Part shown: positions 10,889 to 62,423 of the stretch, piece after piece
Position numbering within the stretch: position 1 is the stretch's first letter
Layout of the letters: the number at the start of each line of letters is the position of its first letter
Assembly (NCBI GenBank): GCA_951406725.2
Contig: OX597814.1
Span: 67,766,001-67,830,000, forward strand
Direction of reading: 5' to 3'
Source: Octopus vulgaris
Taxonomy: Eukaryota
DNA: 64,000 nt
Program-made: the position numbers and the translations under genes
The notes under the pieces: model-generated
Seen by the model: the letters and a program-made list of their open reading frames with translations, nothing else
Told to the model about the DNA's origin: nothing
Databases searched by the model: none

Positions 10889-13800
10889 CAGGTCACTTTC
10901 GAGTGCTGCTGGTAACATGTAACCCAGTACAACCTGTTGCATGGTCGGGCCATCGGCGACTAAACCGGCAACCCCACCAAGCTTGCTTGGTGAGGAGGGT
11001 GTTTATTGGACACCCTGCTGGAGGAAAAACAAAACCCGTCAAAGGGCAGAGGAACTCTTGAGAGTCAACGGCCATCCAATAATTGTGTAATTATATATTT
11101 ACTGTATATCTGCCTTTTTCTCACTAATTTTTATATATTGTATATTTTTATAACTTCATTATATTCATTATATAAATTCTTATATACTTCACATCATATA
11201 TTTTATGTATATTTTGTATATCAATGTTTTTTTTTATATATATATTGTATGTTTTATTTTTTATTTTTTTATTTATTTATTTTTTTCATTATATCAATCT
11301 TATCCAGCTTAAGGCTGTACCATGCGCGGGGACATAGAAATAATTGGACTGAATACCCGATCGCGCGGTTAAACCATTGGGAGTGAAGGACTCCTAGCCT
11401 TTGTTAGGGCATCCTTCTAGGAGAAGGCAACTCAGGTAACTGGGATAACTCCGACATAAAACCTGTGGTTACCGATGATGTTGACTTGTTCTTCTTTTCG
11501 GATTATGGCTGCTGTTGCTTAGTGGGTGGGATTGACTCATTGCACAGCCTTTCCTCACTTGAAAAAAAATCTTCTTGCACAGGCATTGCACGATAACAAC
11601 GTTAATTGATTGATTAAATTGATCAACTAATTCATGATTGTTGATAGTGCTGTGAGTCTCAACTGAATGGCTTAAAAAGCAAATAATTAATGATATAAAA
11701 ATAAATAGCAGTAAGGACTCTGGAACCACATCAGATGAAAGAGTCTGGCACGGCAGGGGCCCCAGAGCATCACAGTTTGAACTCGGCCATCATCATGCTA
11801 CTGTGATAGAACCAAATAAAATATTGAATATTGGCTGTTGGAATGTATGGACACTGCTTGACTGCAAGTCCTCTGAATGTCCTGAACGAAGGACTGCACT
11901 TGTTGCGAAGGAGCTTCAACGCTATGATCTTGACATCGTTGCTTTTATCTGAGACGAGATTACCTGGAGATGGTCATCTTACAGAATCTTGTGGAAAATA
12001 TACATTCTTTTGGAAAGGGAGGAATGAAGAGTTTAGAGGAGAAGCTGGAGTAGCGTTTGCTGTTAAGACTACTCTTGTAGACAAGTTGGAAGAATTCCCT
12101 GTCGGAATTAACAAGCGTCTTATGTCCATGAGAATTCCTTTGGTTAAAGGAAATTATGTGACCTTGGTGAGTGTGTATGCTCCAATTGTGTGCTATACTG
12201 ATGAAGAAAAAATTTCTTTCTACCATGCTTTGGAGGGCAATATAAGAAATATCCCTCGGGCAGACAGTCATCGTACTGGGTGACTTTAATGCTAGAGTGG
12301 GTAGGGATTTTAACACATGGACTGTAATTGGAAAGCATGGGGTGGGAAAGTGTAATAGTAATGGCATCCTTTGTTGCAGATGTGTGAGGAGCTGCGTCTG
12401 TGTGTTACCATTACCATGTTTCAACAAAAGAATAAGTTTAAGACCACATGGATGCACCCTGCATCTAAAGAATGGCATATTCTGGATTACATCCTTGTTA
12501 GAGTGCATGACAGACAGGATGTGCAGTGTGTTCGTGTTCTTCGTGGAGCTGAGTGTTGGACTGACCACCGCCTAGTACATACAAAAGTGAAATTAGTTAC
12601 AAAACATAAAATCCAGGCTGCAGGGATTACCCTGCCTAAAAGACTGAATGTTGATTGTCTTAGGTGTAATAGTGTGAAGAGAACTTTATGAGAGGAAATG
12701 AATGCTGTAGGTATTGGGAAGGATTGGCCGACCCTTAAAAAGTCAGTTTATGATATAGGCAAGAAAGTTCTGGGATTGATACAAAGAAAGCATCAAGATT
12801 GATTTAAAGAAAATGATGAACATATAGATGATTTATTAGCTGATAAAAGATGTACTTTGTCACGCTATCTGTCAGCAAAGCCACAGGAAAGGGAAGTGTT
12901 GCATAGGGAACTCAAGGATGTAAAATCACGTGTGAGGCAAAGGCTTTCTCAGATGAGAGATACATGGTGGAGTAAAAGAGCTGATGAGATACAGGTGGCG
13001 TCGGATTCCAATAACACAAAGCTGTTGTATTGTCTTTTGCGAGAAGTTTATGGACCAACGTCTTCTCTGATGGCACCACTTCGAAGCAGGGATGGTAAAG
13101 AACTTCTTTGTGATTCACAAGGAATTCTGTGAAGGTGGCAAGAACACTTTGATGAAATTTTGAATCAGCAGTCTATAGTTAGTGAGGATGTTCTCAATCT
13201 CACCCATGGATTGCCTGTGACGGCAGCACTCGCAGAACCACCAAAGTTGGAAGAAGTTGCAGTAGCTGTCTCAAGGATGAATAATGGAAAATATCCGGGT
13301 ATGGATGGAATACATGTGGAGTTGTTGCAGCATGGGGGTGAGAAACTTCTGCAGCAACTTCACTCTTTGTTTGGTAAGATATGGACTAGTGAATCTGTAC
13401 CTGAGGGCTGGAGAGATACAGTAATGGTCTTGTATAAGGGAAAGGGCAACAGGAATGATTGTAGTAACTATTGGGGAATATCATTGCTTTCTGTCATAGG
13501 AAAGGTTTTATGCAGAGTACTTCTGGATCACCTGCTGAAACACGTTGCAGATTGTGTTCTTCCAGAAAGTCAATCTGGCTTTCTTGTGGGACGTGGCACT
13601 GCTGATATGATCTTTTCAGCTAGACAGCTTCAGAAGTGTGTGGAACAGGGTCTGGATTTGTATCAGGTTTTTGTCGATCTGACAAAAGCCTTTGATACTG
13701 TTAATAGAAAAGCATTGTGGAAAGTCCTCCAGAAATTTGGGTGTCCTGAAAAGTTCCTTGCTTTGGTTAGGTCTTTTCATGAAGACATGAAGGGTAGGGT

Positions 13801-15264
13801 TAATATTAGGGGGAATATGTCGGAGCCCATTTAAATACAAAATGGAGTAAAACAGAGGGATATTCTAGCACTGACCCTATTTGCCATATATTTTGCAATA
13901 GTTTTCTGTATTGCATTCAGAAACTGCAGATATTGTGTTTACATCCATTATCAAACCTCTGGCAGCATATTTAATATCAGGCACTTTGCTACAAAAACAA
14001 AGGTATTTACCTCTATCATAAGAGACTTTTGTATGCAGATGATTGTGATCTGGTAGCGCACACGGAGATTGATATGCAACACATTTTGAATGCATTCTCT
14101 GATGCTTGCTCTGCCTTAGGATTGACAGTCAGTCTCAAGAAAAATGTTGTCATGTATCAACCTGCCCCTGGTAAGCAGTATAGTGTACCAAATATCTATG
14201 TGTATGGTAAACAACTTGATGTAGTTGATCAGTTTGTCTACCTGGGAGGCACTGTTAATAGATATAGCAATTTGGATGATGAAATTCCATACAGAATTAG
14301 AAAAACAAGTGATGCTTTCGGAAGGCTAGAAAGGTGCCTTTGGAGTATGCAGAAAGACAAAGATAAAGGTGTACAAGGCATGTGTGCTCCCTTCTCTTCT
14401 CTATGCCTGTGAGACGTGGGTCACATATCAATACCACCTTAAACAACTGGAACGTTTCCATCAGATGTGCCTCAGATGGATCCATAGCATTAAGTGGAAG
14501 GACCGCATCAGTGATCTTGAAATATTGGAAGGCTCTCGGTGTGAAAGTATAGAAGCTCTTGTGTTAAAGCAAAGGCTCAGATGAAGTGGTCATCTGGTCA
14601 GTATGAAGGATTCAAGGATGCCAAAACAACTCTTTTATGAAGAGTTAGCTAAAGGAGAACGACCTCCACATAAACCAAAAAAGAGGTATAAGGACTTGCT
14701 GAAGGCTTCCTTAAGAGATGCTTGCATCTCTCCTGACACATGGGAAGGCATAGCTATTGATCGTAGCAGGTAGAGAAGGATTGTACACGAGGGGACAGTC
14801 ACTTTGAGAAATCTCGAGTTGCACATGAGAAAGTAAGGAGGAATGTCAGGAAGGGCATCGCTGTTACACTTCCAGATGGGAAGGGTCTTCCTATGATGCT
14901 GACATGCAGTGTCTGTGCAAGACCCTGCCTCAGTAAAGCTGGACTCAAGAGTCATCTTCATAATCATAAAGCGAGACAGATGAGTGACAACCTGGCCACT
15001 GGTGGTGGTGTTACACACCTTAATTGTCATATCTGTCAGGCATGTCGAAGAGAGTGTAATTCGGCAGGAGGACTTAAACAACATGCAAAGTACATGAAGC
15101 CAGTTACAACTACAGCCGGCTATTGCTGGTAAAGGTTTTAGGTGCCAATTCTGTACAAGACATTGTAGATCTTTAGCTGGGCTAAAAAGTCACATTTAAT
15201 CACAGCACTAATAACAGTTAAGCTTCGTGCAATGGCCATACTCGATAACGAAGAGGCAGCCATC
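10889..15264 (+). mobile_element. Near full-length, inactivated RTE-clade LINE (APE endonuclease, RT, C-terminal C2H2 fingers)
   Basis: [55 protein letters not shown] (~14032), CSVCARPCLSKAGLKSHLHNH. 3' end GAAGAGGCAGCCATC. Possible low-complexity 16 bp TSD ATATATGTATGTATGT at 10873-10888 and 15265-15280. Multiple frameshifts and stops. Confidence 0.9.
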
Positions 15265-15519: not shown

Positions 15520-16295
15520 CCACCACCCTGCCCTGTCCCTAGCCATATTCAGATGGCTTTAGTCCCTTATGTTATCGAGCAGTTACTGTCTATATCCCTT
15601 TTAGAGAATTATTATTGCTTTCGAACAGATTTTCGAAATCAGCAAATGTATTTTGCTTGAAAATCTATATAAGAAAATCCTGCATAGTGAGAATTCGTCG
15701 AGGAAGCGGAGGCCTACCACACGCCGATGATAGGCAATACACCTTGAAACCATGGTCCGTGTGTGGTTTCCGCTTCATCGGGGAATTACCTCCCTTTGCA
15801 GGTTTAGGGCACCGTGACGGTGTCGAGCCTTTCTGGTGACGTCGATGTTCGCCTGGGGCTAAATGCAACAGTAACACCCCCACCACCCTGCCCTGTCCCT
15901 AGCCATATTCAGATGGCTTTAGTCCCTTATGTTATCGAGCAGTTACTGTCTATATCCCTTTTAGAGAATTATTATTGCTTTCGAACAGATTTTCGAAATC
16001 AGCAAATGTATTTTGCTTGAAAATCTATATAAGAAAATCCTGCATAGTGAGAATTCGTCGAGGAAGCGGAGGCCTACCACACGCCGATGATAGGCAATAC
16101 ACCTTGAAACCATGGTCCGTGTGTGGTTTCCGCTTCATCGGGGAATTACCTCCCTTTGCAGGTTTAGGGCACCGTGACGGTGTCGAGCCTTTCTGGTGAC
16201 GTCGATGTTCGCCTGGGGCTAAATGCAACAGTAACACCCCCACCACCCTGCCCTGTCCCTAGCCATATTCAGATGGCTTTAGTCCCTTATGTTAT
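15520..16295 (+). mobile_element. Candidate retrozyme: 2.16 identical copies of a 360 bp non-coding unit, each full unit with a type I hammerhead
   Basis: Units 15520-15879, 15880-16239 and a 56 bp partial, flanked by (TA)n. HHR cacacg CCGAUGA uagg-caauaca-ccuu GAAA c-caug-g UC cgugug at 15718-15763 and 16078-16123. Homologous to the element at 48385-48759. Confidence 0.8.
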
Positions 16296-30130: not shown

Positions 30131-30661
30131 AACATTTTTATTAAGGATTTTCCATGTTTTGTGTGTTTCTTGCAATTCATTTGAAACAATAATCTATTTC
30201 TCAACTATTTCAGTCTCATCTCATCTTCAGTTTGTAATGTGCTGTTGGTATGTGTAACTGTAATTTCTGTAGGTTTTATAACCAGAACCTGTTTAGACCT
30301 TATCAGAAATTTAATTGTAAGAAATTTGATTGTTGGTATTTAGTATGTAATATATGTGTATTTTTTCTGAGTATATTTTAGTTTTGCTCTGCATTGTAAC
30401 TCTTCCATCATTAATCATTTAATTTTGTGTGAAATTCTACTTAGTATTGATGTATTGTCCTCTAGTACTCTCTGAGTAGACAGTAGTTATGGTTCCTAAA
30501 TTAAGCTTTGTCTAAAGTTTTCATATCTTAAGAATGATATACAATTGTTTATATCTGCCAGTAACTAGCAGCAAAACTATACAATTGTTTACTTAAGCCT
30601 GTAGATATGTGTTATTATTATTACTATTGTTACAGGATTGTTTATTTCTATTATTTTTAAG

Positions 30662-31834
30662 GCGAGTGAGCTGACTAATCGATGTACTTTGATAGGAGAG
30701 AAAGTTCAAGAGACCAACCTACAGTTAGAAGATGCTAAAAAATCTCGGGAGGAGTTGTATGAGAAATATATTTCTTCCCGCGACCATTACAAATCTGACT
30801 ATGAAACTCGTCTCAAGGAAGAATTAGCAAAAATTCAATCGAAGACAAATATGGAAATTGAAAAACTTCGAACATCAACTAAAGAAATGTATGATCGAGA
30901 AAATCGAAACTTACGTGAAGCCCGTGACTTTGCAGTGATGGAGAAAGACAAATTTGAACTAAAATGTCAAGAAATTCAAGATAAATATGACCAGCTTATG
31001 AATGAATTCCGAGCCTTACAGACTTCTGGTGATGGGAGATTGTTAGATTTACAAAGTGAGGTTAAACTAAAAAGTTTTGAAGCAGAACGAGGTAATTTGG
31101 TCTTTGAAGAAACTTGCAAAAATTTGAAACAGTGTCAGTTAGACCTGGAAAAAATGGAAGCAAAGTATGATGTCTTATTGAAAGAGTACTATGCAATGGA
31201 AAACATGAAAGAAAAGACTATTACTGAGCTGAATTCAGAACTAGTGTCTAAGAATATTCGTTTAGATTCTTATGAGAAGCTTGAAAAAGAGTTGGATGAA
31301 GTTGTTTTGCAAGCTGCTGAGTTAACTGATCAAGAAAATGCTGAGAAGGTTCTCTTTGCTTATGGCTATGGTGCCAATGTACCAACAAATGCAAAGCGTC
31401 GACTAAAACAGAGTATAGATTTGGCACGAAGAGTTCTAAATCTTGAACGGCTCAATACATCACTTCAACATGATCTTGAAGCTGAGAAGAAATGTGTTCA
31501 ACAAATAACTGAAGAGTTAAAATCTTCTAAAGACCTAATTCATGTTTCACAGCAGCCACAAAGCTACCTTGTTGAAACTCTTAAAAATCGAGACAATATG
31601 TTAAAAACACAAAAAGGAGAGCTTGATAATGCATTGAAACAGAATGAGATCCTGAAAACTGAACAAAACCGACTTTTAACCACACAAAATCAACTGTCAC
31701 AAGATTTAGATCGTTTGCTCCATCACCAGGCTGAAATTTCTCTTATGAAGCAGGTTCTGATGAAGATATCTTCTGGTAAATCTAGTGGAATTGATACTTT
31801 GATAGAAAGTGGTATTTCATTCACTCAGGCATGA
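30662..31834 (+). CDS. PIBF1: PIBF1/CEP90, large (probably terminal) coding exon
   Basis: Contains SRDHYKSDYE, EMYDRENRNLREARD, YEKLEKELDE and LFAYGYGANVPTNAKRRLKQS, all PIBF1 hallmarks. Acceptor ttttaAG at 30661 joins LSRQ|ASELTNRC, colinear with vertebrate LNRQNMELSVRC. Stop TGA at 31832-31834. A possible donor near 31775 (G|GTAAAT) cannot be excluded. Confidence 0.92.
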   Translation, partial: ASELTNRCTLIGEKVQETNLQLEDAKKSREELYEKYISSRDHYKSDYETRLKEELAKIQSKTNMEIEKLRTSTKEMYDRENRNLREARDFAVMEKDKFELKCQEIQDKYDQLMNEFRALQTSGDGRLLDLQSEVKLKSFEAERGNLVFEETCKNLKQCQLDLEKMEAKYDVLLKEYYAMENMKEKTITELNSELVSKNIRLDSYEKLEKELDEVVLQAAELTDQENAEKVLFAYGYGANVPTNAKRRLKQSIDLARRVLNLERLNTSLQHDLEAEKKCVQQITEELKSSKDLIHVSQQPQSYLVETLKNRDNMLKTQKGELDNALKQNEILKTEQNRLLTTQNQLSQDLDRLLHHQAEISLMKQVLMKISSGKSSGIDTLIESGISFTQA

Positions 31835-37109: not shown

Positions 37110-39960
37110 AGGAGCCCTATTATCGAAACCATCAAGCAAAAGGTATCTGCTAAAGCTGCCCGCATAGCGAGGTATGAAAAGTGTATTAGATCCTTCAAGG
37201 ACAACATGTTCAAAAATAACCCCAAAAATTTTTACAGGAAGATAGGGAAAACACCAGTTACTGTAAAGTCAAAAGAAGTGCAAGGTTTTTGGAATAAAAT
37301 TTGGGCAGAAGAAAAATCACACAACGAAAAGGCCACGTGGATTGATAGAATAGCTACGGTTTTGTACTCCTTAGAGGAGCAAAAGTGGGAGGGTGTCAAG
37401 GTAGAAGATGTAAGATCTGCTCTCAGGAGGTCAAGCAAATGGAAGTCTCCAGGAAAGGATAAAATTCCTAACTTCTGGTTGAATGACTTCCCAGAGAGCC
37501 ATGAACTGCTAACAGAACTTTACAATGATGTTTTGCAACACCCTAGTAGGATGCCTGCTTGGCTAGTTGATGGTTTAACATTCTTGCTCCCAAAAAGTGA
37601 AGAAACAAATGAACCAAAAAAACTATAGACCCATAACCTGCTTAACAACTATGTATAAAACGCTAACATCTGTCCTGGCGGAATATACCTATAGTTTTTT
37701 AATAGACAGCAGCATATTCCCAATAGACTATAAAAAGGCTTTTGATAGCCTACCACACAGCTGGATAAAGAAAAGCCTGGAAATATTTATCATTCAGAAT
37801 ATCTAAGGCAGCAGTTTTAGCACGGGTTTTCATGCGCTTAGCTTTTTCTGTGCTTGTTTCTTGTATGTCTAATTCCGAAATTTGTTGTATTCGGAATTCA
37901 CTTCGATATTCCTTTGCCTGTTTTGTTACTGACTATGATGCTTTCTTGTTTTCATGTTTTCGCCTACTCTGCGAAACTTTTTGTCTGTAAGTATGAGATC
38001 ATGGAGAACCACACTAACTTTGAACAGTGACGATGAATCTCTAAATGCTGGTGATGTAAAAATTTCATGTGGTATTTTCCAAGGCGACTCACTATCACCA
38101 CTCCTCTTTTGTTTAGCCGTAATACCTCTCTCAAAATTGCTCATTGATGCACAGTACGGATATAAAATGTTGGATGAAAATATAAATCATATCATTTACA
38201 TGGATGGCTTAAAGCTCTTTGCAAAAAATGACCAACAACTCAAGGGCTTACTAACGATTGTTAAACAATTCAGCGATGACATCAGACTGCAATTTGGCCT
38301 CAATAAATGTGCAAAAGCTACCTTTATCAAAGAAAAAATGACAGAAACATCTAACGTTTACCTCGACCAGCAGAATACCATAAAAGAGTTAGACCCAGCG
38401 GAGAGCTATAAGTACCTAGGGGTAATTGAAGGGGGGTGGAATAAAGCATTCAGTGATGAAGGAAAGGATCGGGAGAGAATGTTATCGCAGAGTAAGAGCA
38501 ATACTCAAGACAGCTGAATGCGAGAAACAGGATCGAAGCGATCAATGCTTTAGCCATACCAGTCGTGACTTACAGTTTCAATATCGTTAACTGGTCAATT
38601 ACTGAAATATGTAATCTTGACCGAAAAATAAGAAAACTGTTGACAATGCATAGAATGCACCACCCTAAGGCAGATATAGAACGACTTTATCTGCCACGAA
38701 AATAGGGAGGCCGTGGACTTTTACAACTGGCAATAACAGTGAAGGTTGTTACAATTGGCCTAGACACCTACCTGAAAAACTCAGGACTGGATGTTAAAAC
38801 TTGTCTCAAAACATGAAAACAAGACAGCATCATAGTCAGTAACAAAACAAGCAAAGGAATATCTAAGTGAATTCCGAATACAACAAATTTCGGAATTAGA
38901 CATACAAGAAACAAGCACAGAAAAAGCTAAGCGCATGAAAACCCGTGCTAAAACTGCTGCCTTAGATATTCTGAATGATAAATGGTAAGAAATACCTCTC
39001 AATGGCAAATACCCAAAGAGAGCGAATAATGCAGATGTTGACTAAGCCCTGACCCATCAATGGCTAATGGCCTCTGGCTTAAAATCTGAAACAAGGGTTT
39101 ATCATAGCAGCTCAAGATCAATGCCTGCCTACAAGGAACTACCAGGCCAACATATTAAAGAATGGCAGTAGCCCAACATGTCGCGTATGTCAACAACAAA
39201 ATGAAACCATTGATCATGTTGTCTTCAAGTGCAGTCTTTTAGCGCCTACAGAGTATCTCAACAGGCATGATAGAGCTGCACAATATATTCACTGGTTAAT
39301 TTGCAAAAGCCTGGACTTGCCCCATGATAAAATCTGGTGGGAACACAAACCACCTCCAGTGCTTGAAAATGACCACATCTCACTCCTCTGGAACTTCACC
39401 ATTCAAACTGTCAGAAAGATAGACGCGAATAAACCAGACATCATAATAAAAGACTTCAGACAAAGAACTTGCTTCCTCATTGATATGACTGTCCCAATCG
39501 ATAGAAACATATCTGTCAAGACCTACCAGAAACTGAGCAAATATAAAGATCGTGAAATAGAAATCAGCAAAATGTGGAACCTGAAGACTGAAACAATACC
39601 TGTTGTCATAGGTGCCCTGGGAATGATAGCAAAAGGGGCTGATTGCTACCTAACTCAAATACCAGGAAACCCCAAAATGGCAGAAATTCAAAAGATAGTG
39701 CTCATGGAAACTGCTCATATCCTACGCAAAATACTTTCTATGTAATCTCAAGGTTTAAAACAAACATAATTTTCGTATGGCTTTTTAAGCATTCACTAGT
39801 ACAACACTAAGTACAAAACCAAATATATGGCACCCTAGGCATAACACCAACACGAACTTCCAACTTGTCTCTTGAGGTCTCTGGGTGAGACTTGGAGCCA
39901 GCTTGTGCAAATGTAAAGCAAAAGTCAAACATAGAATAATAATAATAATATTATTATTAT
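37110..39960 (+). mobile_element. 5'-truncated R4/Dong-clade non-LTR retrotransposon (RT, CCHC, restriction-like endonuclease)
   Basis: WKSPGKDKIPNFWL, DYKKAFDS, GIFQGDSLSPLLFC, YMDG(D)LKLFAK, CRVC..NETIDHV..C, KPDIIIKD..IDMTVP..KLSKYKD. 3' end abuts (TAA)n. Confidence 0.88.
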
Positions 39961-43826: not shown

Positions 43827-45208
43827 ACCCCACGACCCTACCTCTCCAACGCACCATTCTTCGAGCTTTCCGTCATCTCCAGTCCGACCCGTCCACTTCA
43901 CACCTCTTCCCTAACCGACCCCTCCCCTCTTTCAAACGAGCCCATAACCTTCGAGACCTTTTGGTCCATAGCTCCTTCCCTGACCCTACCTCCCAACCTG
44001 GCTCGTTCCCCTGCTCCCGCCCACGTTGCCGTACTTGCCCTTACCTTTCCAACACCACCCTCCTCACTGGCACCCATCATCTACCCTATCGCATCATCAA
44101 CTCCTTCACCTGCACCTCCAGCAATATTATCTATTGCGTCTCTTGCTCTCTCTGCCATTCCCTGTACATCGGACAAACGGGACGCCGCTTGGCTGACCGG
44201 TTCGCGGAACACCTTCGTGACATCTGCCTTGCGAACGACACACCGGTCTCACGCCATTTCCGCTCCACCGGTCACTCCTTGCAACATCTATCTGTGTTCG
44301 GTTTGTCCTTACACAGAGGCCATCCGGATTCCCGTTTGCGCCGTGAACAGGAATTAATCTTCTCTCTTCGCCATTTGGTCTCAACTCCCCCCCCTCCTCA
44401 TCTAACCCCCATCTCCCCCTCCTCATCTAACCTCCCCCCGACCCCTACTTCTCTTCAGTCCTTCATCCTTTCACCCCTACTCCTCTTCCCTTCTTCCCTC
44501 TTTCTCCCTCCCTCCTTCTTCCCTCTTCCCCTTCCCTCTTTCTCTCTGCTCCCTCACTCCCCTTCTCTCTCCCCCCTCTCCCTCTATCCTCCCCCTCCTC
44601 CCCATCCCCCCCTCCTCTTCTCCCCCCTCCTCTTCTCCTCTCCTTCCTTCTCCCCCTTCCCCTTCCCCCTCCTCTTCTCCCCTTTCCTTCTCCCCTCTTC
44701 TCCCCTTTCTTTCTCTCCCCTCTCCCCCTCACCCTCTTCCCTCATCTCCTCTCTCTACCCTACACCATACGACTTTACACATCACATATATACATACACA
44801 CGTCCAGACCTCTCATACGCACTAATACTCTCTCATACATACACACACACTCTTCTCATACACACACACACACTCTTATGTTGGAGCGAGGTCATTTAAC
44901 CCTATTATCTCCCCTAATTTCGCTCTTGCGTCTCATGTTTGACCTTTGACTTCTGGCCGAAATCAGATCGCCATGTTGATTCGCTAGCTTCTGCACACAT
45001 ATTTTTTTTCTCTCCTTCTTTCTGTGTTTTTCTCTGTGTGTCTTTCTGTTGAAGAGCGTAGGCTCGAAACGTTAAAGACTTGTTTTATTTATATTTCCTG
45101 AGCGCCATACTAATACAATTGTTTGTTTGTATTCCACCTGCCTTCGTCTTTTGTTTATTTCCGTAAACCTGCCTTCGTCTTTTGTCTATTTTGATAAAGC
45201 TTCCCGTT
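43823..45208 (+). mobile_element. 5'-truncated Neptune-like Penelope element (Cys-rich linker, GIY-YIG, 3' pLTR) in (TA)n
   Basis: YHP..F.RAHNLRDLLVHS..PCSRPRCRTCPY..NIIYCVSCSLC..YIGQTGRRLADRFAEHL..HF..H..RLRREQELIF. The terminal GLN is frameshifted. Polypyrimidine tract, then HHR-like motif at 45040-45079. Confidence 0.9.
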
Positions 45209-48324: not shown

Positions 48325-48384
<60 letters not shown>

Positions 48385-48388
<4 letters not shown>

Positions 48389-48759
48389 TGACGTATATTT
48401 GCCATCTCAATATTGCTACCCCTAAGGGTGGATGCTACTGTAGTTTTTAGCCCCAGGAGGACACACTCCTCCAGCTGGCCATAGACACACTTTCTGTGTC
48501 CTGTCAGTATTTGCAAAGGGAAGTCATCCTTCCCGTCTTCAACTTATGATACACACGGACTCGAGTTTCGAGGTATTGACCTCTCGTCAGCGTGTGACAA
48601 TCATAGTTGTCGGCGAGAATTAGATTTCCTTCACAAATACTTATACTTTTTCCAGCGTCCACTGTCGCTGATATTGAAAAAGTGAAATCAAACAATGATA
48701 AATATCAAAGTGAGTTATATACAGTAGCGGTAACACATCGTGACGTATATTTGCCATCT
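48385..48759 (-). mobile_element. Candidate retrozyme: 352 bp monomer plus 23 bp terminal redundancy, in (TA)n
   Basis: Direct repeat ATCGTGACGTATATTTGCCATCT at 48385-48407 and 48737-48759. Canonical HHR inside. Confidence 0.85.
48552..48596 (-). ncRNA. Canonical type I hammerhead ribozyme
   Basis: cacacg CUGACGA gaggu-caau-accuc GAAA c-ucga-g UC cgugug. Stem I is extended by caacu..augau/aucau..aguug. Predicted cut between 48558 and 48557. Confidence 0.9.
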
Positions 48760-49563
48760 ATATATATATATATTGTACTAACACTTTTTATTTTAGCCTT
48801 TATTGCATTTAAAGTTTTGTCTACATACTGACATCTGGAATTTGTACTGACATTTCAGAAAATATTTATATATAAAAACCCTTTAATATTATTAACATAG
48901 TTAGGCAATATATCAATTACAAGTTTACATAAACTGTATGGTGCTAGAGATGTCCTGGTGGTGTTTGAGGGGAGCCTTATAAATTCAATATCATGTTCGC
49001 TGCTTCATATTTATTTAATATAATTTTAATTCCAGTAGTTTAGTCTGCAAGAAGATTTTTCCATAGACTTTGCAGGTCCTCCCTGTCTGGGGAGTTCGAA
49101 GCAGTTTAGTCATCAGAATCCGACAAGTTCAATTTGTTACTTCTTTTCCGAGGAAATAAACGAAATTCTAATTACAAGCTAGTACTACTTTTGAGCAAGA
49201 TGGTATCACACAGCCTGTGAAGCAATCAATAATTATTAATTTGCCTTACGTTACAACTGAGGAAGCAAGCCTATGATTATTCATTTATTACCAACCGACG
49301 CGAAGGGATAAATACTAGTGATGAGAATTTCATGAAAGAAGACAAATAACAAAATTTGAATGTGTACAAATATTTGGACAAGAAAAAAGAAAAAAGAAAA
49401 AAACAAAATGGTATAGTTAATTAAGTTGGAAATGTGCATCATCACAATTCTATACTTATATTTAGTTTTGATGTTAATACCTGAAGTTGTATCAATTTGT
49501 TTGAAACCAATATATCAAACGAGAGTGAAGTTAAAGGCCTTCTGAAAGCTACTACTTAGAATA

Positions 49564-50188: not shown

Positions 50189-53100
50189 CGAGTTATGAAA
50201 TGCTCCACGAGGAATGGCACACAGGAATGGCTTCACGAGGAATGGCACACACTGCCTCCAAAAAAGAAAAGGAGGAAAAAACAAAAGGACACACAGGGGA
50301 AGCACGAACAAATAGTGCTTCCCAACATCAAGAACAACAACAACAACACTTTTGACACCACTACTGCCACTGCCACACACACCAACACCAACAGACGCGA
50401 TTACAGCAATAAACACAAAAAATGAAAAACTCGTTGCATACCTAAAAGACAAAGCAAGTACAAACATAACAGATTTCGTTATACCAACACACAATGCACC
50501 ACCAGCACACATTCTCACAATAAAAATCAACGCAACAACATACAGTGACATAAAACAAATATTCCTTAACGATGTCGGATCGCTAGGGAAAAGTTTCTCA
50601 AAGAAACTATATAAAAATATCGTGGAAGCACCCGTGCAAAAGCACAAGGGAGCCACCCCCACCACCAACAACAGTAAGTAGAGCCTTTTTCTCCTTTTAT
50701 TTTTTTCCCCACCTTTGAAACATGGCAAAACTTAGAATCGGTTGCTTGAATGTGAGAGGCCTCGGGTCACCTTGGAAACAGGGTCACCTGTTAAACGACC
50801 TGAGGTTTCATGATGTGGATGTAGCAGCCATCAGTGAAACCAGGCTCTCCAACCCGCAGGAACTCGCAGCCCTTTTCGACGGATACGAGATATTTCTATC
50901 TCCGTGTCGGCCGGGAGCGGGCGGTGGTGGTACTGCGGTGTTGTTTCGGAAGGGCCTGGACTTGAAAATAAGGACAGTCTTCCTGGATCCGGAAGGTAAG
51001 TTGGTGGTCCTCGACGTAGACGGTAGTGACGGCGGTGCTTTCAGACTGCTGGCTGCCTACGCTCCGACAGGAGCAGGGCAGTCGGATTATTTCAAACGTC
51101 TGGAAGTTTTCCTGGGAACGTCACGCACTCTAGTACTAGTTGGGGATTGGAACGCTGTCTTAGACGAACGTTTCGATCGGGTGGGCAGGGGAGCGTCTGA
51201 TAGGAGAAGAGAGTGCAAGAGCCTCGCCAACCTACTCGGACGCTTTCAGCTGTTCGACAGGTTTCGACTAAACAACCCGAATGTGCCAATGTGGACTTGG
51301 ACCAATCGCATCGGGTTGTCTAGATCGTACTTAGATAGAGTGTTTTGTAGGCTAGCGGATAAGGACAGCATAGGGTGTCCACAATTCCACCTAGTCGACT
51401 ACACGGACCACAAATTCGTGATCTGTACGGTCGACTTAGATAGGCTACATAGACAGGGACCCGGCTACTGAAAGCTGAACGTGTCGTTAACGGCGTGCAA
51501 AGCTTACAGAGACCGGATTAGTTTACTAGTTAAGCGGGCGCTCACGGGGGCAATCATCAACAACAACTGGTGGTTTGCCCTCAAGAGAGCAATTAGAGTA
51601 GAGTCAATTAGGTATAGTAAGACTCTAGCTATTGAACGTAGGAAGAGAGAGCGGGATTTAGTTAAGAAACTAGACGAGGCTCTTGAGACTGGCATCGCGA
51701 CCGACGTGTTGGCGGCAAGGTTGGCCCTCGACCAACACTTCGACGCCAAACACGAAGGCTACTTTGTCAGAGCTAAGGCACGTTCGCTAAGCGGGGAGGG
51801 GACTAGAGCCGCTCGATGGGCCCGCGTGACGGAGGCGAAGCGAGGCAACAAAGCAACCATTCGGTCTTTGGTGGACCAGAACGGGCGCGAGTTTACCGAA
51901 CCGAAGCAGATGTGTACGGTGCTTCAGCGGCACTTTGCTCAACTATTTGGGACGAACGGTGGAACGGACACCAACGGTACAGACTTCGGTGTGTACCTGG
52001 ACGGCCTACCGCGGCTCTAGAACGACGAGGCAGAGTGCTGCGAAGGACCGATATCTGCCTAGGAAGTGGAGGAAGTGATGAAGAGTTGCACGAGAGGTAG
52101 ATCGCCGGGTTTGGATGGTCTGCCCTACGAGCTTTACACTTCAATGCCAGACTTGTTTGCGGGCCTGTTGGCAAACGTCTACTGCAACTGGCAGCAAAAC
52201 GGAAGAATTCCTGCTTTTGTCTGTCGAGGGGTGGTGGCTTTGCTAAAAAAGGACCCAAACAAGGGGGACGTTATAGGGAATTTTCGGCCCATCACTCTGC
52301 TCAATGCAGAGTTGAAGATTTTGGCCAAGGTGCTAGCCAAGAGATTGGCGCTTGTCGTGGACAAGTTGGTCGGCAAGACGCAGACATGCGCCGTGCCGAC
52401 CAGGTCGATACACGACAACCTCCATCTCATATGCTACATCATAGAGAGGGTGGGTAACGACGCTGGCGCGGGTGGGGCTTTGATCAACTTGGATCAGAGT
52501 AAAGCCTTCGATAGGGTCGACCATCGGTACCTGGCAGCTGTTCTCAAGGCAGCCGGCTTCGATCCAGTCTTCCGCGGGTGGATCGCTGCTTTATACAGCA
52601 GCATCTGCTCGGTGATACGGGTGAACGGTCACCTTTCGGAACCGTTCGACATCTCGCGTTCGGTCCGCCAAGGATGCCCTCTCTACTCCCTCTTGTAGAT
52701 ATTGACTCTCGAGCCATTACTGCGCAAGTTGGAGGCTTTGAGGGGTATCCTGCGCGATCTAGGAGGCGGAAACAGCGTGTCTGCCTATGCCGACGACGTC
52801 ACCATGATGGTGTCGAGCCACAGGCACATTGGCCTGATTGGCGAGACACTAAACGAGTACGAAGCGGTGACAGGGGAAAAGATTAACGCGGAAAAGTCTG
52901 TGGGCTTGCAACTGGGCACCTGGAGAGGCAAGCCCATGCCGTCCAACAGCTTCGTAGGACGCTGGACAGACGGATCCGTTAAACTGCTCGGGGTCTGGTT
53001 CGGTCCGGACCTCCAGGTGGATAAAAACTGGGAAGAAGTGACGAGCAGGGTGACACGTCTCACCCAGAAATGGGCTGACAGGAAGCTGTCCCTGAAAGGT

Positions 53101-54443
53101 CGAGCGGAGGTGGCGAATGCGTACATCGCATCCGTCATCTATTACCGCTTGACCGTCGTCCCTTGTCCCAACCGCTGGTTGGCCAAGCTGGTACGCCTGC
53201 TTTTCGACTTTTTGTGGAAGGGTCAGATGCCACTGGTCAGGCGATCCATCTGCTGTCAACGACCGCTGAACGGAGGCCTTGGCATGCCGTGGTTACTGAT
53301 GCGCAGACATACGCTCAGGCTGCGACATCTCAAGCGTTTCCTAGACGGTGAACAGGTGTGGTCGTCTTTTGTCAGACGCGATTTTCCGCAGCTCGTCTCT
53401 TTGACAGAGCTGCAGACCTGGATCAAACTTAGACCGAGAAAGGGCGCTTGGCACCTCGAGTGCCGTCAAGCTCTCTCCGCCCTCCGCCAGGCGGGCAATG
53501 CGATCAGTTTCAGTTCCACTCTAGCGTTCTATAGAGGGTTAGTGGAGTAAAAATGCGATGACGTTCTCGGGGAAACTCTAGGCGTTGACGATAACGAACT
53601 GAGCGGTCTGTTCGCAAGGACTTTCGGGCTGGGGCCAATGGACGATTTCCAGAGGATGCTTGCCTGGCAGTGCTACCGAGGGGCGCTGCCTGTTCGGGAT
53701 AAACTCTACCGGCACGGAAGTGCCGTCAGCCGGGCCTGCTGAGGTGTTGCCAGGACGACGAAACCGTTCTGCACGCACTCGTCCAGTGCCCGAGTATTGC
53801 TGAACTATGGATTTATGTCGAACAGCTACTGTCACGTGTAGGACGGATCCGACTATCAGCCGAATCCATAGTGAAGATTGCCCCGCCGACCTCCTTTAAC
53901 AAGGAGGGTGAGGCCGTTTTCCTGTGCCTAGTGGCTGTGGCAAAAGAGGTTGTATGGTGGACCCGTTTGAAAGGGCTAAAGTCAGACACTTTCCTCTTTG
54001 GTCAAGGCCTCATCAACTTTTTCAAGTTTCACTTGAAAAGGAAGATGAGTTTAGAGAGGAGAGTGCTGTCCGATGGCAAGTTTTCTGAAAGGTGGGTGAA
54101 TTGTGTGAGAATGGCCAGTATAAATGGACCAATTCTCAGGTTTCGCCTATGATTGAAAAAGGTTTTATAAAAGGAGAAAAGGGCTCTCTACCCCCCTTTT
54201 GACTAGGCTCCCGTTCGCTTTTATGGGTTTTTTCCACCAAGAACCTTTCGTAACGCCTCCTCCTTTTGGAAGATTTTCATTGTTATAATCTTTCGTTGTT
54301 AAACTGTTTTTACTCGGATTTTTCACAAACGAACAAAACCCTTTGTAACCTTTCGTCCTGTTTTGTCCCTTTATGTTTACTAATCATGTGCGTCAGCCCT
54401 TGTGGCCAATAAAAAGAATTAATTATTATTATTATTATTATTA
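50189..54443 (+). mobile_element. Tx1/L1-clade LINE: partial ORF1 and full-length but stop-interrupted ORF2, (ATT)n tail
   Basis: LNVRGL, ISETRL, GDWN, YLDR, DH (APE); LDQSKAFDRV, RQGCP, YADD (RT); C..C...ET..H....C. In-frame stops at ~51469, 52018, 52060, 52696 and 53548. Confidence 0.93.
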
Positions 54444-54699: not shown

Positions 54700-57600
54700 A
54701 ATAATCGACCAAGAGTAGTTTTCCGTTGATTCCGACCAAGAGCAACGTTCTGTTGAAACTCCGAAAGCAAACACAGCTGAAGGTAAAATAACTTTCTCCT
54801 CAAAGAGAATTATAATTTCAACTTGTTGCTATGGCGACAGTAACAAGTGCAAAAGTACCAGCAGCAACGATAATGACGACGAGTACAGCAGCAGTAGCAG
54901 CAGCAGCAGCAGCACCTCCATCATCTCTACCACCACCACCACAACCACAAACAGCAGAAACAGCAATAATAACAGCAACTCTAGCTACAACAACCACATC
55001 AGTTATAAGGTGAACAAGATCGAAAACAAGTAACATAAATAACAAGGTTGAAAACAACACCAACAGTGATAATCGTGTCGAAAATGACAATAAAAATGAC
55101 ACTACTAACAACAACAACAACAACATCTGCAACAGCAGCAGCATCAATAATAACACAATGATCCTCAACAAAGCTACTTCCTTTTCTAAAGCCGTTGGCA
55201 ACTGGACTATTGTTTTCAGTGGATGACTTAAGAAATAAGGCACTGAAATACAAGAGTGTCATTATGAAACTAAGTGTTATGTGCCTGGAGAAAAAAACCC
55301 TCCGAAAGACGAACAATTGTTTATAAATGTGTTTCTTACAAGGAGTGGAAACTTAAATTTCCTACTCCGGCAGAGCCCGAAAAGTGCCTCGAAAATGCGT
55401 GGCTCTGTGTGCTACACATACAGAAAGGTAAACAATATGGGATGATTGCTGCTATATGCAGCAGTGAGCAAAAAGTCAGAAGAATGGCTACTATAACTTG
55501 CATGTACCAGGCTTTTGTAATGATTCTCCTTTACATGGATAAAAGGTTGACTGGAATTCGAGTCAAGAACGTACCGGGTCACTGTGATCCGGTGAGGGTT
55601 TTTGCCATTCTGGAGGAGCATAGGGAAGTTATGGAGGTAAAGTCCACCCCACAACTCAACAGGATTGAAATTCTTATGGAATTCCAGATACTAGTTTCTC
55701 CAGAAGAATTAAATCGCATTCCCGATTTTTTCTGTTTCGGGGATTGCGAACAGATGCCAGTTTCTATAGAAGGAAAAAAAGAACAAGTGTTTTGTGTGAG
55801 AATTCAAACCAACTCAAAGCATTTTGCCCCGTGGTAGAAAAAACATGAAGCTCTCTACCGTTACTACCTACTCCTCAAGGTGGAGAAAAACTATTACCTC
55901 GCATCTGCCTCCTTCCTCCGACTCAACTCTCGCAAAAGCAAGGTCCTCATTGACTTCGCACCAAAAGGCCTTTGTCAGAGATAAGAGAAAGACTGAATAT
56001 GAATCAAACTGAAGGGTCTAGGAAAACAATTAAAAAAACAAAATCTGCCACAATACCAATTCAAAACAAATCAACACCAACATCAACATCTTCATCACAA
56101 AACAACCCGTTTTTACAAACACATTCACAACCACAAAAAAGCACGAAAACAAAATGAAATACCTAAAAAATAAAATGACCAGCAGTCACACTCTCGGGTG
56201 CGTGCTTCCTTCATCGACTTCATTCTTGTTCAGAAGAGCCACATTGAATTGATTGAGAAAGTGGTTAATAACAAAAAGTCAAGTGGCGAAGGTTTTGCAG
56301 AATTCTTCAAGAAAACCCCACTGGATCGGATGTTAATACGAACAGATACAGATACGTATTTTGGTTTGAAAGACAAATTCCCCCTGTACACTGGAAAGTT
56401 TAGTAGGTACCCCCCAAAAATTTCCTAGAAAAATCCATCTCCATTACCCCCTCAACCACAAAGAAGACTGTGTCAACAGTCGTCCCCGGAGATCAAGATA
56501 CGTAATTCCATTTTCTTTTCTCTAAGTTAAATGGCTACACTCAGAGTTGGCTGCGTAAATGTTCGGGGCCTGGGTTCGGCTTAGAAGCAGGCTCACCTGC
56601 TCAACGATATCAGGTCCCTAAATTTAGATGTGGCAGCAATTAGTGAGACGAGAATTGCTGGGAAACGACATGCTCTTGCAAACATTTTCGAAAACTACGA
56701 GGTATTATTATCTTGTGGTCTGTCGGGAGCGTGTGGCGGTGTAGAAGTGTTATTCCGAAAATCCTTAGGTCTCAAAATAAAGGCAATCTTCTTGGACCCG
56801 GACGCTACGTTGGTGGTCCTAGATGTGAATGGCAGTGAAGGTAGTACCTTTAGAATGGTGGCCATGTATGCGGCGATAGGGACTGGGAGGCGAGATTTCT
56901 TCAGACGTCTAGAAACATTTCTGGGAACGTCTCGCTCTTTGGTACTAGTGGGGGACTGGAACAGTATTTTGGACGCGCGGAAGGGCTGTGTGGGTTTAGT
57001 ACATAGAAAAAGGTGTAAAAGTCTCGAAATCCTGCTCAGAAACTTCCAGTTTTCTGACAAGTATCGATTGGATTTCTCTGATGTGTCAGTGTGGACATGG
57101 AGCAATCACAATGGATCATCTAGATCGTATCTAGATAGAGTATTTGTTAGGTCAGCGGATAAGGATAGTATTGGGTGTTCACAATTCAAAGTGGTCGACT
57201 ACATAGACCACAAATTCGTGATCTACACGGTCGATTTAGATAGGACGCGTATACAGGGACCTGGTTCTGAAAGTTGAACACGTCCTTTTCGGCGCACAAA
57301 GACTACAGGGACCGGATTAGCGAACTAGTTAAGCGGCAGCTGATGGGGGGCAATCGTTAACAACAGGTGGTGGATAGCCCTGAAACGGGCGATTAAAGCA
57401 GAATCGACAGAGTTTAGCAAAGAGTTAGCAATAGAAAGAAACAGATTAGAGGGAGAACTAGTTAGCAAACTAGAAGAGGCGATTACTAAAGGCATCATGA
57501 CTGACGTGTTAGCAGCGAGAATGGTTCTTGAGCATTTCTTTGAAGCGAAACACGAAAGTTGCGTTGTCAGAGCTAAGACCCGCGTACTAAAGTATGAGGG

Positions 57601-59489: not shown

Positions 59490-59984
59490 ACAGTGAGAGA
59501 GCAGCGCATGGCATCAAAGTGATACTGGGTATACAAATATACGAAGCTCAATATAACCAACATTACTACCCGTCTAATAAGGGTCCACCAGGCACATGCA
59601 TCACAACCATATGTGCGCGACATGGTGATCTCATATCAAGATAAACAGTGCTTCACCTTGCAGGTGGGGCGCACTTAAAATTTTCTTCAGGTTGAGTTGA
59701 CCATCCCACTCAGAAGGTCCTAGAATAAGGTTTGTTTTAAGGATGATGAACAAAACACCCATTTTCCAGAAGTGAATTATTCAAACCCCAAAGAATTCCT
59801 CTCAACACATGGCTTGCTCGTGAACAGAGTTGCACATATAGTCAGCCACTAAGGGACATGCTCAACTGGTTAAGGTCAAACAACTGACAAGCAAATCTGT
59901 GGTATTGAACAGAATATTTGCTGTAGCCCATCTTTTATACCAAGACAAAACAATGTAGATGATAACACTTCCAACCAGTTAATA

Positions 59985-59985
<1 letters not shown>
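59490..59985. repeat. Unclassified interspersed repeat between (TAC)n and (TTA)n arrays
   Basis: Non-coding segment bounded by microsatellites, interrupting the Tx1 cluster. Confidence 0.4.

Positions 59986-62423
<2,438 letters not shown>

Follow-up and report, generated by a model that had tools for sequence, protein, structure and literature searches.

The window analysed here, a 64,000-nucleotide stretch of Octopus vulgaris contig OX597814.1, contains a 375-bp sequence that an initial annotation took for a retrozyme-like element, the second of two in the window. This raises the question of what kind of repeat it is and of how it could be copied and inserted, since neither it nor the first element, at 15520, has an ORF of 150 aa among the window ORFs. 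The copy and its surroundings are made up as follows.

48385..48759, minus strand: insertion of subfamily B, made up of a 352-bp unit and 23 bp from a second, 5'-truncated unit
48326..48386, no strand: (TA)n target tract, (TA)30, on the element's 3' side
48760..48773, no strand: short (TA)n target tract on the element's 5' side
48385..48388, minus strand: short 3' end at unit position 20-23, the window copy's own end and putative first reverse transcription start site
48401..48416, minus strand: GCCAU/AUGGC hairpin, 13-16 nt before the short end, with a private mismatch at 48414
48690..48736, minus strand: tail segment, unit position 24-70; other copies have their long 3' end at 48690-48694

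Judged by its sequence, this is a young copy of an abundant, protein-free repeat with a hammerhead motif. It has a single arm with one ribozyme motif, and the TA flanks ascribed to it are there, as (TA)30 at 48326-48386 and a short TA run from 48760. The 352-bp monomer length is correct for the window unit, but in many B arrays the period is 353 bp. The 23-bp redundancy is likewise real, as an exact repeat at period 352 whose last 2-3 bases could be part of the TA tract, but it is not a defined terminal repeat since the 5' ends of 58 B arms are evenly spread round the unit (KS p 0.51).

The ribozyme motifs of the two window elements lie at the following positions.

48552..48596, minus strand: type I hammerhead motif with CUGACGA core, 4-bp stem II and palindromic UCGA loop III
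15520..16295, plus strand: subfamily A insertion, 2.2 identical 360-bp units, short end at 16295
15718-15763 and 16078-16123, plus strand: A hammerhead motifs, core CCGAUGA, with cuts predicted to follow 15757 and 16117

The textbook hammerhead attributed to the minus-strand copy is recognised by Rfam as Hammerhead_1 at 48552-48596 (-), at 32.2 bits, below the gathering score of 34 (E 2.4e-6 in a 373-bp search); a whole-window Rfam scan at E<=1 returned microsatellite-driven miRNA matches only and not this motif. The cut is predicted after GUC, between 48558 and 48557. On sequence the core bases are intact in B, and A has C at position 4. A hammerhead motif with its CCGAUGA core can be made out in the 15520 element too, but Rfam gives no match to it. 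Having two ribozymes, the 15520 copy could yield a monomer; having one, the copy at 48385 could not do so by itself. Across the genome searched (2.8 Gb in 227 contigs) the exact B ribozyme motif occurs 407 times, often at unit spacing. A genome search with Rfam model RF00163 finds six loci, none an intact family member by blastn, one of which (L092) has a partial match to the family profile. In the text of a recent Xenopus study, eight of nine retrozymes are given as showing no cleavage in vitro (10.64898/2026.07.22.740005).

The proposed homology with the 360-bp repeat was set against shuffled controls, as the initial annotation had suggested. The local alignment of the two units scores 52, against 18.3 +/- 2.2 (maximum 30) for 1000 dinucleotide shuffles, with 57% identity over 341 aligned columns. 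All the sequence blocks said to be common to both units are present, but the variable M of UAGCMAUAUU turns out to be private to the window copy, the other 39 of 40 B loci having C there. The spacers do differ between A and B, as had been stated, but they are alignable and base-paired rather than free.

Loci taken in order along contig 1 served to name the subfamilies, of which there are at least five: A, B, C (about 80% to B), D (about 75%) and E (55-62%). A shared motif of 22-25 bases has 8,758 exact matches in the genome and its reversed control none. With the B unit as query there were 3,085 candidates, the best 40 of which were scored and gave full-length matches of 98-100%; the A query gave 612, again with the best 40 scored (identity 99-100%). 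Subfamilies A and B, about 99% identical internally, are therefore young, and C and E, with copies only about 85% alike, older. Thus the description of an old, diversified family applies to its depth, A and B being 57% identical, but not to A and B themselves. The view that this is a diversified family of retrozyme-like elements, conserved in more than the ribozyme, is supported: the A/B alignment outscores its shuffles, and the copies are not terminal repeats attached to PLE ORFs (see below). Its copies are dispersed over many contigs and have neither poly(A) nor a 3' repeat of their own. One 17-unit A array (L225) has variants that recur five units apart, a pattern that suggests local block duplication after insertion.

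Where the copies end is informative. The 3' ends had been placed shortly after AGATGGC, and both window copies indeed end 16-18 nt after it, but the family also has another fixed 3' end, 44-46 nt beyond the first. The 40 B insertions have 57 outward ends, of which 53 map to unit positions 19-23 or 62-70; the 33 A insertions have 55, with 50 of them at 50-56 or 96-100. Both sets favour long copies because they were chosen as the best search matches. Nearly all these ends run into TA. The A and B sites are homologous, lying 13-18 and 59-63 nt after the AUGGC hairpin, and subfamilies C and E end in the same two regions. In contigs from two independent runs the sequence changes to ATATAT at 48691 and 48694, the long site. 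Mapping of the genomic termini thus bears out that the 3' ends lie far from the ribozyme cut, and the guess that the conserved region might prime reverse transcription finds its counterpart in the two fixed ends. For a Penelope-like element (PLE) of Anolis, reverse transcription is reported to start at two internal sites, the intervening sequence being called the 'tail', which that text describes as unique to PLEs (PMC11167929). The corresponding tail is 44-46 nt long in the present family and 30-35 nt in the PLEs of this genome. An end classifier based on TA offset, which left 46 arms unscored and included some stray matches, was replaced.

The two ends are not distributed at random between the arms of inverted insertions. 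One short and one long arm are found in 67 of the 70 inverted insertions with both ends scored. Head-to-head insertions are short+long in 13 of 17 cases in B and 18 of 22 in A; the remaining eight have one arm unscored and none scored alike on both arms, although one, L231, with an arm ending at 93, may be long+long. In the contig 1 sample of 67 loci in order, 25 were inverted by script and 23 of these short+long; 22 were counted after one (L277) was dropped as a stray match, the others being one short+short locus (L141) and one unscored. Subfamily C has eight inverted insertions (six short+long, one short+short, one unscored) and subfamily E nine (eight short+long, one short+short). The three loci scored as short+short exceptions are L141, L167 and L294, the first of which looks by eye like a long arm with a deletion. 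Single arms in the unselected contig 1 sample stand at 22 short to 17 long, which predicts short+long in about half of the pairs. The rule also holds in four of four inverted copies of the genome's own PLEs (two of two for each of PLE-1 and PLE-2).

Where the arms meet head to head, they mostly overlap by 0-5 nt. Of 39 junctions, 37 join 5' ends that are unrelated, 9-174 nt apart on the circle; in the other two, the A loci L128 and L253, both 5' ends lie at the same position. Five non-TA sites show target duplications of 11-15 bp. Taken as a sequence footprint, this pattern is the trace to be expected if the two strands were nicked in a staggered way and each nick primed at its own site.

Together these features make it probable, in our judgement, that the window copy is a young member of a non-coding retrozyme family, inserted as two-end copies in (TA)n, with an snRNA-type promoter and a predicted ring form, and moved by a Neptune-type PLE enzyme that primes on both strands. 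Transcription would start from the ATCAG motif of one unit, about 25 nt before the ribozyme core of the next. Two successive ribozymes are predicted to release a 352-360-nt monomer, which would then be ligated into a ring. A GIY-YIG nuclease would nick both strands of AT-rich DNA about 11-15 bp apart; from one nick, copying would begin at the short site, and from the other at the long site, 44-46 nt to its 3' side. Synthesis would go on past the point of ribozyme cutting, with the number of rounds varying, and would end in the head-to-head joining of the two cDNAs (0-5 nt overlap) or in the retention of one arm only. The footprints of the last three steps, namely priming at two sites, read-through and joining, are visible in the genomic copies.

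The nature of the template can be approached through the arms. Most arms continue beyond the cut site (55 of 58 in B, 50 of 65 in A), and stops within 3 nt of it number none in B and two in A (about 1.2 expected in each). The longest arms reach 5,185 nt, or 14 units. In B there are six cases of a locus-private variant present in every unit, five of them across both arms; A also has six, five of them in one locus. Variants confined to a single unit are far commoner (114 in B, 57 in A). Read-through and all-unit variants fit rolling copying of a monomer ring, with both arms made from the same ring type, although the variants could also come from homogenised multimer source arrays. In A the arms are concentrated just 3' of the cut, at positions 238-258 (KS p 7e-5), and some templates may thus have been linear. 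One might then dispense with the ring altogether and suppose that the same element and a PLE-type enzyme use linear, uncut multimers transcribed from tandem source arrays. Such arrays are present in the genome, A has a variant core and a weak stem II, and the Anolis PLE, as reported, did not need ribozyme cleavage in vitro (PMC11167929). We nevertheless regard a purely linear template as unlikely, since arms of up to 5,185 nt would require the ribozymes of 14 units to be left uncut, and locus-private variants fill all units and both arms, so that a monomer bottleneck is needed at some step.

A PLE-type enzyme implies a partner in the genome, and a search for GIY-YIG domains gave 6,136 candidates, the best 150 of which were scored. 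One of them, PLE-1, forms a unit of 4.7 kb whose 781-aa frame is intact and contains RT and GIY-YIG domains; copies are 95-100% identical and 16 of those fetched have the whole frame. The protein has the CX4CXXC motif of the Neptune/Nematis type (motif as given in PMC8557442). The PLE-1 element has its ends in TA, at two sites separated by 35 nt, and the genome's true PLEs in general end in (TA)n with a 30-35-nt tail. PLE-1 is thus, by sequence, an intact and young candidate for the partner enzyme. Its 3' region and those of the other PLEs sampled have no detectable sequence in common with the family. As no PLE with a family-like terminal repeat came to light, the partner is proposed by type rather than named.

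Given the link with PLEs, the copies might alternatively not be an independent element but represent terminal repeats (pLTRs) that belong to an autonomous PLE and have been truncated. Tail, inversions and TA targets are all PLE traits, and the PLEs sampled are those of clades with a C-terminal GIY-YIG match. The family copies, however, do not flank PLE RT and GIY-YIG frames as terminal repeats, the situation that the initial annotation had considered fatal to its view. When the family profile was compared with 56 + 20 GIY-YIG or hammerhead loci, separate insertions only and no parent terminal repeat were found. The head-to-tail units follow one another at 352-360 bp with no ORF between them, and PLE protein similarity occurs in only 8 of 195 family loci (0.6-1.5 kb flanks). 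Four of these eight were inspected: three (L130, L216 and L147, the last being the same as L107) are separate insertions and the fourth (L165) is a one-off junction. In the last, at L165:1480-1500, a subfamily C copy is joined without intervening TA to an old PLE, at the long 3' end of the latter, possibly through a template switch. L216, in the 3' region of a PLE, might equally be cited for the pLTR reading, but that PLE is about 5% diverged and the insert young. Neither of these two older PLEs has a family terminal repeat in its 29 + 29 relatives, 0/29 of which in each case continue into the family. A pLTR origin is therefore largely refuted for the PLE families sampled, and we consider it very improbable overall. 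Reading L216 as a template-switch chimera that would name the partner was also rejected, the insert lying inside the 3' region of the older PLE. Family copies and PLEs often lie in or beside each other's TA-rich ends (for example at L130, L048 and L216), as expected from their shared target.

Mirror-image arms might instead arise by fold-back self-priming or from an antisense template, the tail being an optional by-product of the nuclease. Self-priming from junction palindromes has been proposed for rotifer Penelope elements (PMC3846280, in the text consulted), and the coinciding 5' ends of L128 and L253 would suit it. We consider this origin very improbable: in the other 37 of 39 junctions the 5' ends are 9-174 nt apart, and fold-back gives no reason to expect a short end with a long end in 67 of 70 insertions. 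That the family is a satellite, or a SINE driven by LINEs, which spread through DNA recombination or through the window's abundant LINEs is scarcely credible: there are several APE/RT LINE fragments in the window, and periodic variants typical of local duplication in some arrays (L225), but the copies lie on many contigs without poly(A) or a 3' repeat of their own and end at two internal sites, a footprint common to PLEs.

The elements of the predicted RNA structure of the unit and a promoter-like motif are as follows.

48507..48640, minus strand: predicted rod extending stem I on both sides (circular MFE, covariation)
48721..48728, minus strand: GCUACUGU strand of an 8-bp helix with ACAGUAGC, between the two start sites on the circle
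48434..48441, minus strand: ACAGUAGC strand of the same 8-bp helix (covariation)
48667..48672, minus strand: ATCAGC, like the ATCAGT of U1/U2; putative promoter, with a start near 48610-48615
15638, plus strand: ATCAGC in the subfamily A insertion

All six units folded as circles gave minimum free energies with z of -3.7 to -7.4 (25 shuffles each), and 48530-48620 alone gave z -3.7. The rod is predicted to include the conserved CCCUUUGCA block as its 3' strand. On the ragged alignment RNAalifold found nine pairs only, so whole units were realigned. A 77-pair structure in 19 whole units, set by eye from the same sequences and compared with a shuffle control that ignores relatedness, has 85% of cells paired against 77.6% when shuffled and 34-47% when slid, with 129 double changes against 58 shuffled and both sides varying in 32 pairs. 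Several helices are misaligned for A or E in this alignment. The helix of GCUACUGU and ACAGUAGC has 94% of cells paired and changes from U-A to C-G in 5 of 19 units. Each start site lies shortly after a hairpin. The conserved blocks noted in the 48385 and 15520 units would thus correspond, in the modelled fold, mostly to helix strands of the whole unit.

An internal promoter was among the functions guessed for the conserved parts. ATCAGT occurs at -57 to -61 in 37 of 40 U1/U2 loci of the genome, and the family ATCAG mostly lies 81-87 nt before the ribozyme core, a motif and spacing like those of U1/U2. In a matrix built from six promoter types, the ATCAG block is the best match in 10/10 A-D units (p 0 to 0.055 each); in E units it is best in 4/9, not significantly. 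Per-unit matches are weak, the units are related and ATCAG overlaps an RNA helix. The family is, on this evidence, likely to be transcribed from an internal snRNA-type promoter, so that the guess stands as to motif and spacing and its promoter role is putative. Newt satellite 2 offers a parallel, being a hammerhead tandem repeat (about 330 bp) with an internal snRNA-type Pol II promoter (Coats 1994, cited in PMC2220036), unlike the present case, where the promoter is proposed from a short motif and its spacing.

A more specific and tentative proposal, which we think possible but somewhat doubtful, is that the two halves of a PLE-type dimer copy one ring simultaneously, each half nicking one TA strand. 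A conserved RNA domain, namely the two hairpins flanking the 8-bp helix, would assign the start sites, and the promoter would be one captured from a U-snRNA. Were this so, the 352-nt unit would be a complete minimal substrate and would explain the tandem, inverted and tail structures of all PLEs. The five diverged subfamilies in any case mark out a paired RNA domain round the start sites.

The element class is already known and a link with PLEs has been proposed for it (PMC7229834; 10.64898/2026.07.22.740005). In sequence terms the family is an animal non-LTR retrozyme, having tandem non-coding units, a hammerhead, no LTR, duplications of more than 4 bp and self-pairing. Metazoan non-LTR retrozymes are described as tandem, non-coding units of 150-450 bp, below 50% GC, that pair strongly with themselves and contain a single type I hammerhead; they lack LTRs, come with duplications of more than 4 bp and occur in genomes that also contain PLEs, all as here; those of mussels have repeats of 350-390 bp (Cervera and de la Pena 2020, PMC7229834). 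For them cleavage and circles were shown and a PLE partner proposed; here the PLE footprint is mapped, from DNA only. The words 'tail' and 'inverted' do not occur in the text of that paper as available to us. Vertebrate retrozymes also form tandem hammerhead families beside Neptune/Poseidon PLEs, but 24 of 57 Xenopus families have pLTR homology, against none found here, and the text of that study contains no mapping of ends or inversions (Li, Clavereau and Pollet 2026, 10.64898/2026.07.22.740005).

The family also has the sequence marks of PLE-mobilised DNA: two internal 3' ends, tandem or head-to-head copies, variable 5' truncation and AT-rich targets. EN+ PLEs have, in the texts consulted, two internal start sites, AT-rich targets, tandem and head-to-head copies, a one-end tail and a predicted dimer cutting both strands (Frangieh 2024, PMC11167929; Craig 2021, PMC8557442; Arkhipova 2013, PMC3846280). 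The present family differs from them in having no ORF and a tail of 44-46 rather than 30-40 nt. Their tail is called optional or often at one end (PMC3846280; PMC8557442), in contrast to short+long in 67 of 70 insertions here, and the in vitro work of Frangieh is described as showing no strand difference in start site, unlike the short+long pairing (PMC11167929). The literature seen, mostly open-access texts without supplements, contains no description of this family or of a strict short+long rule. What appears to be added here, from genomic sequence, is a countable insertion rule common to five subfamilies and the genome's own PLEs. Both the origin of tandem and mirror-image PLE insertions and the mover of animal retrozymes are open questions in the literature; with a countable rule, five subfamilies and a young candidate enzyme, the two-strand priming model becomes testable in an existing in vitro assay.

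Several further observations concern the PLEs and the window. In PLE-1 the RT frame is preceded by a second open frame of about 465-479 aa (L110:1338-2754, also L100 and L108), which overlaps it by 78 nt and has no Pfam match above cut-off; a single ORF is the rule in canonical PLEs. The PLE-1 3' region contains repeated GATTGG and TGACGTC blocks (L107:5200-5560), presumably comparable to CCAAT and CRE promoter motifs. PLE-2 contains, at L115:5299-5348, a stretch resembling a hammerhead, with CCCGAAGA...TGAAA, and PLE-1 a more deviant one at the same place (L110:1100-1205); Rfam finds no hammerhead in the 3' regions of either. Several protein relatives of PLE-1 are labelled as coming from bacterial gill symbiont assemblies, probably host DNA carried in. 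Within the window, broken LINE fragments (AP endonuclease, RT, zf-RVT) lie at 13133-13831, 37939-39742, 50719-53547, 56585-57274 and 59966-61189, and a 409-aa open frame with no Pfam match at 30605-31834 (+). A decayed PLE-like coding remnant, 25-29% identical to PLE proteins, occupies 43853-44359, 4 kb from the 48385 element and not joined to it.
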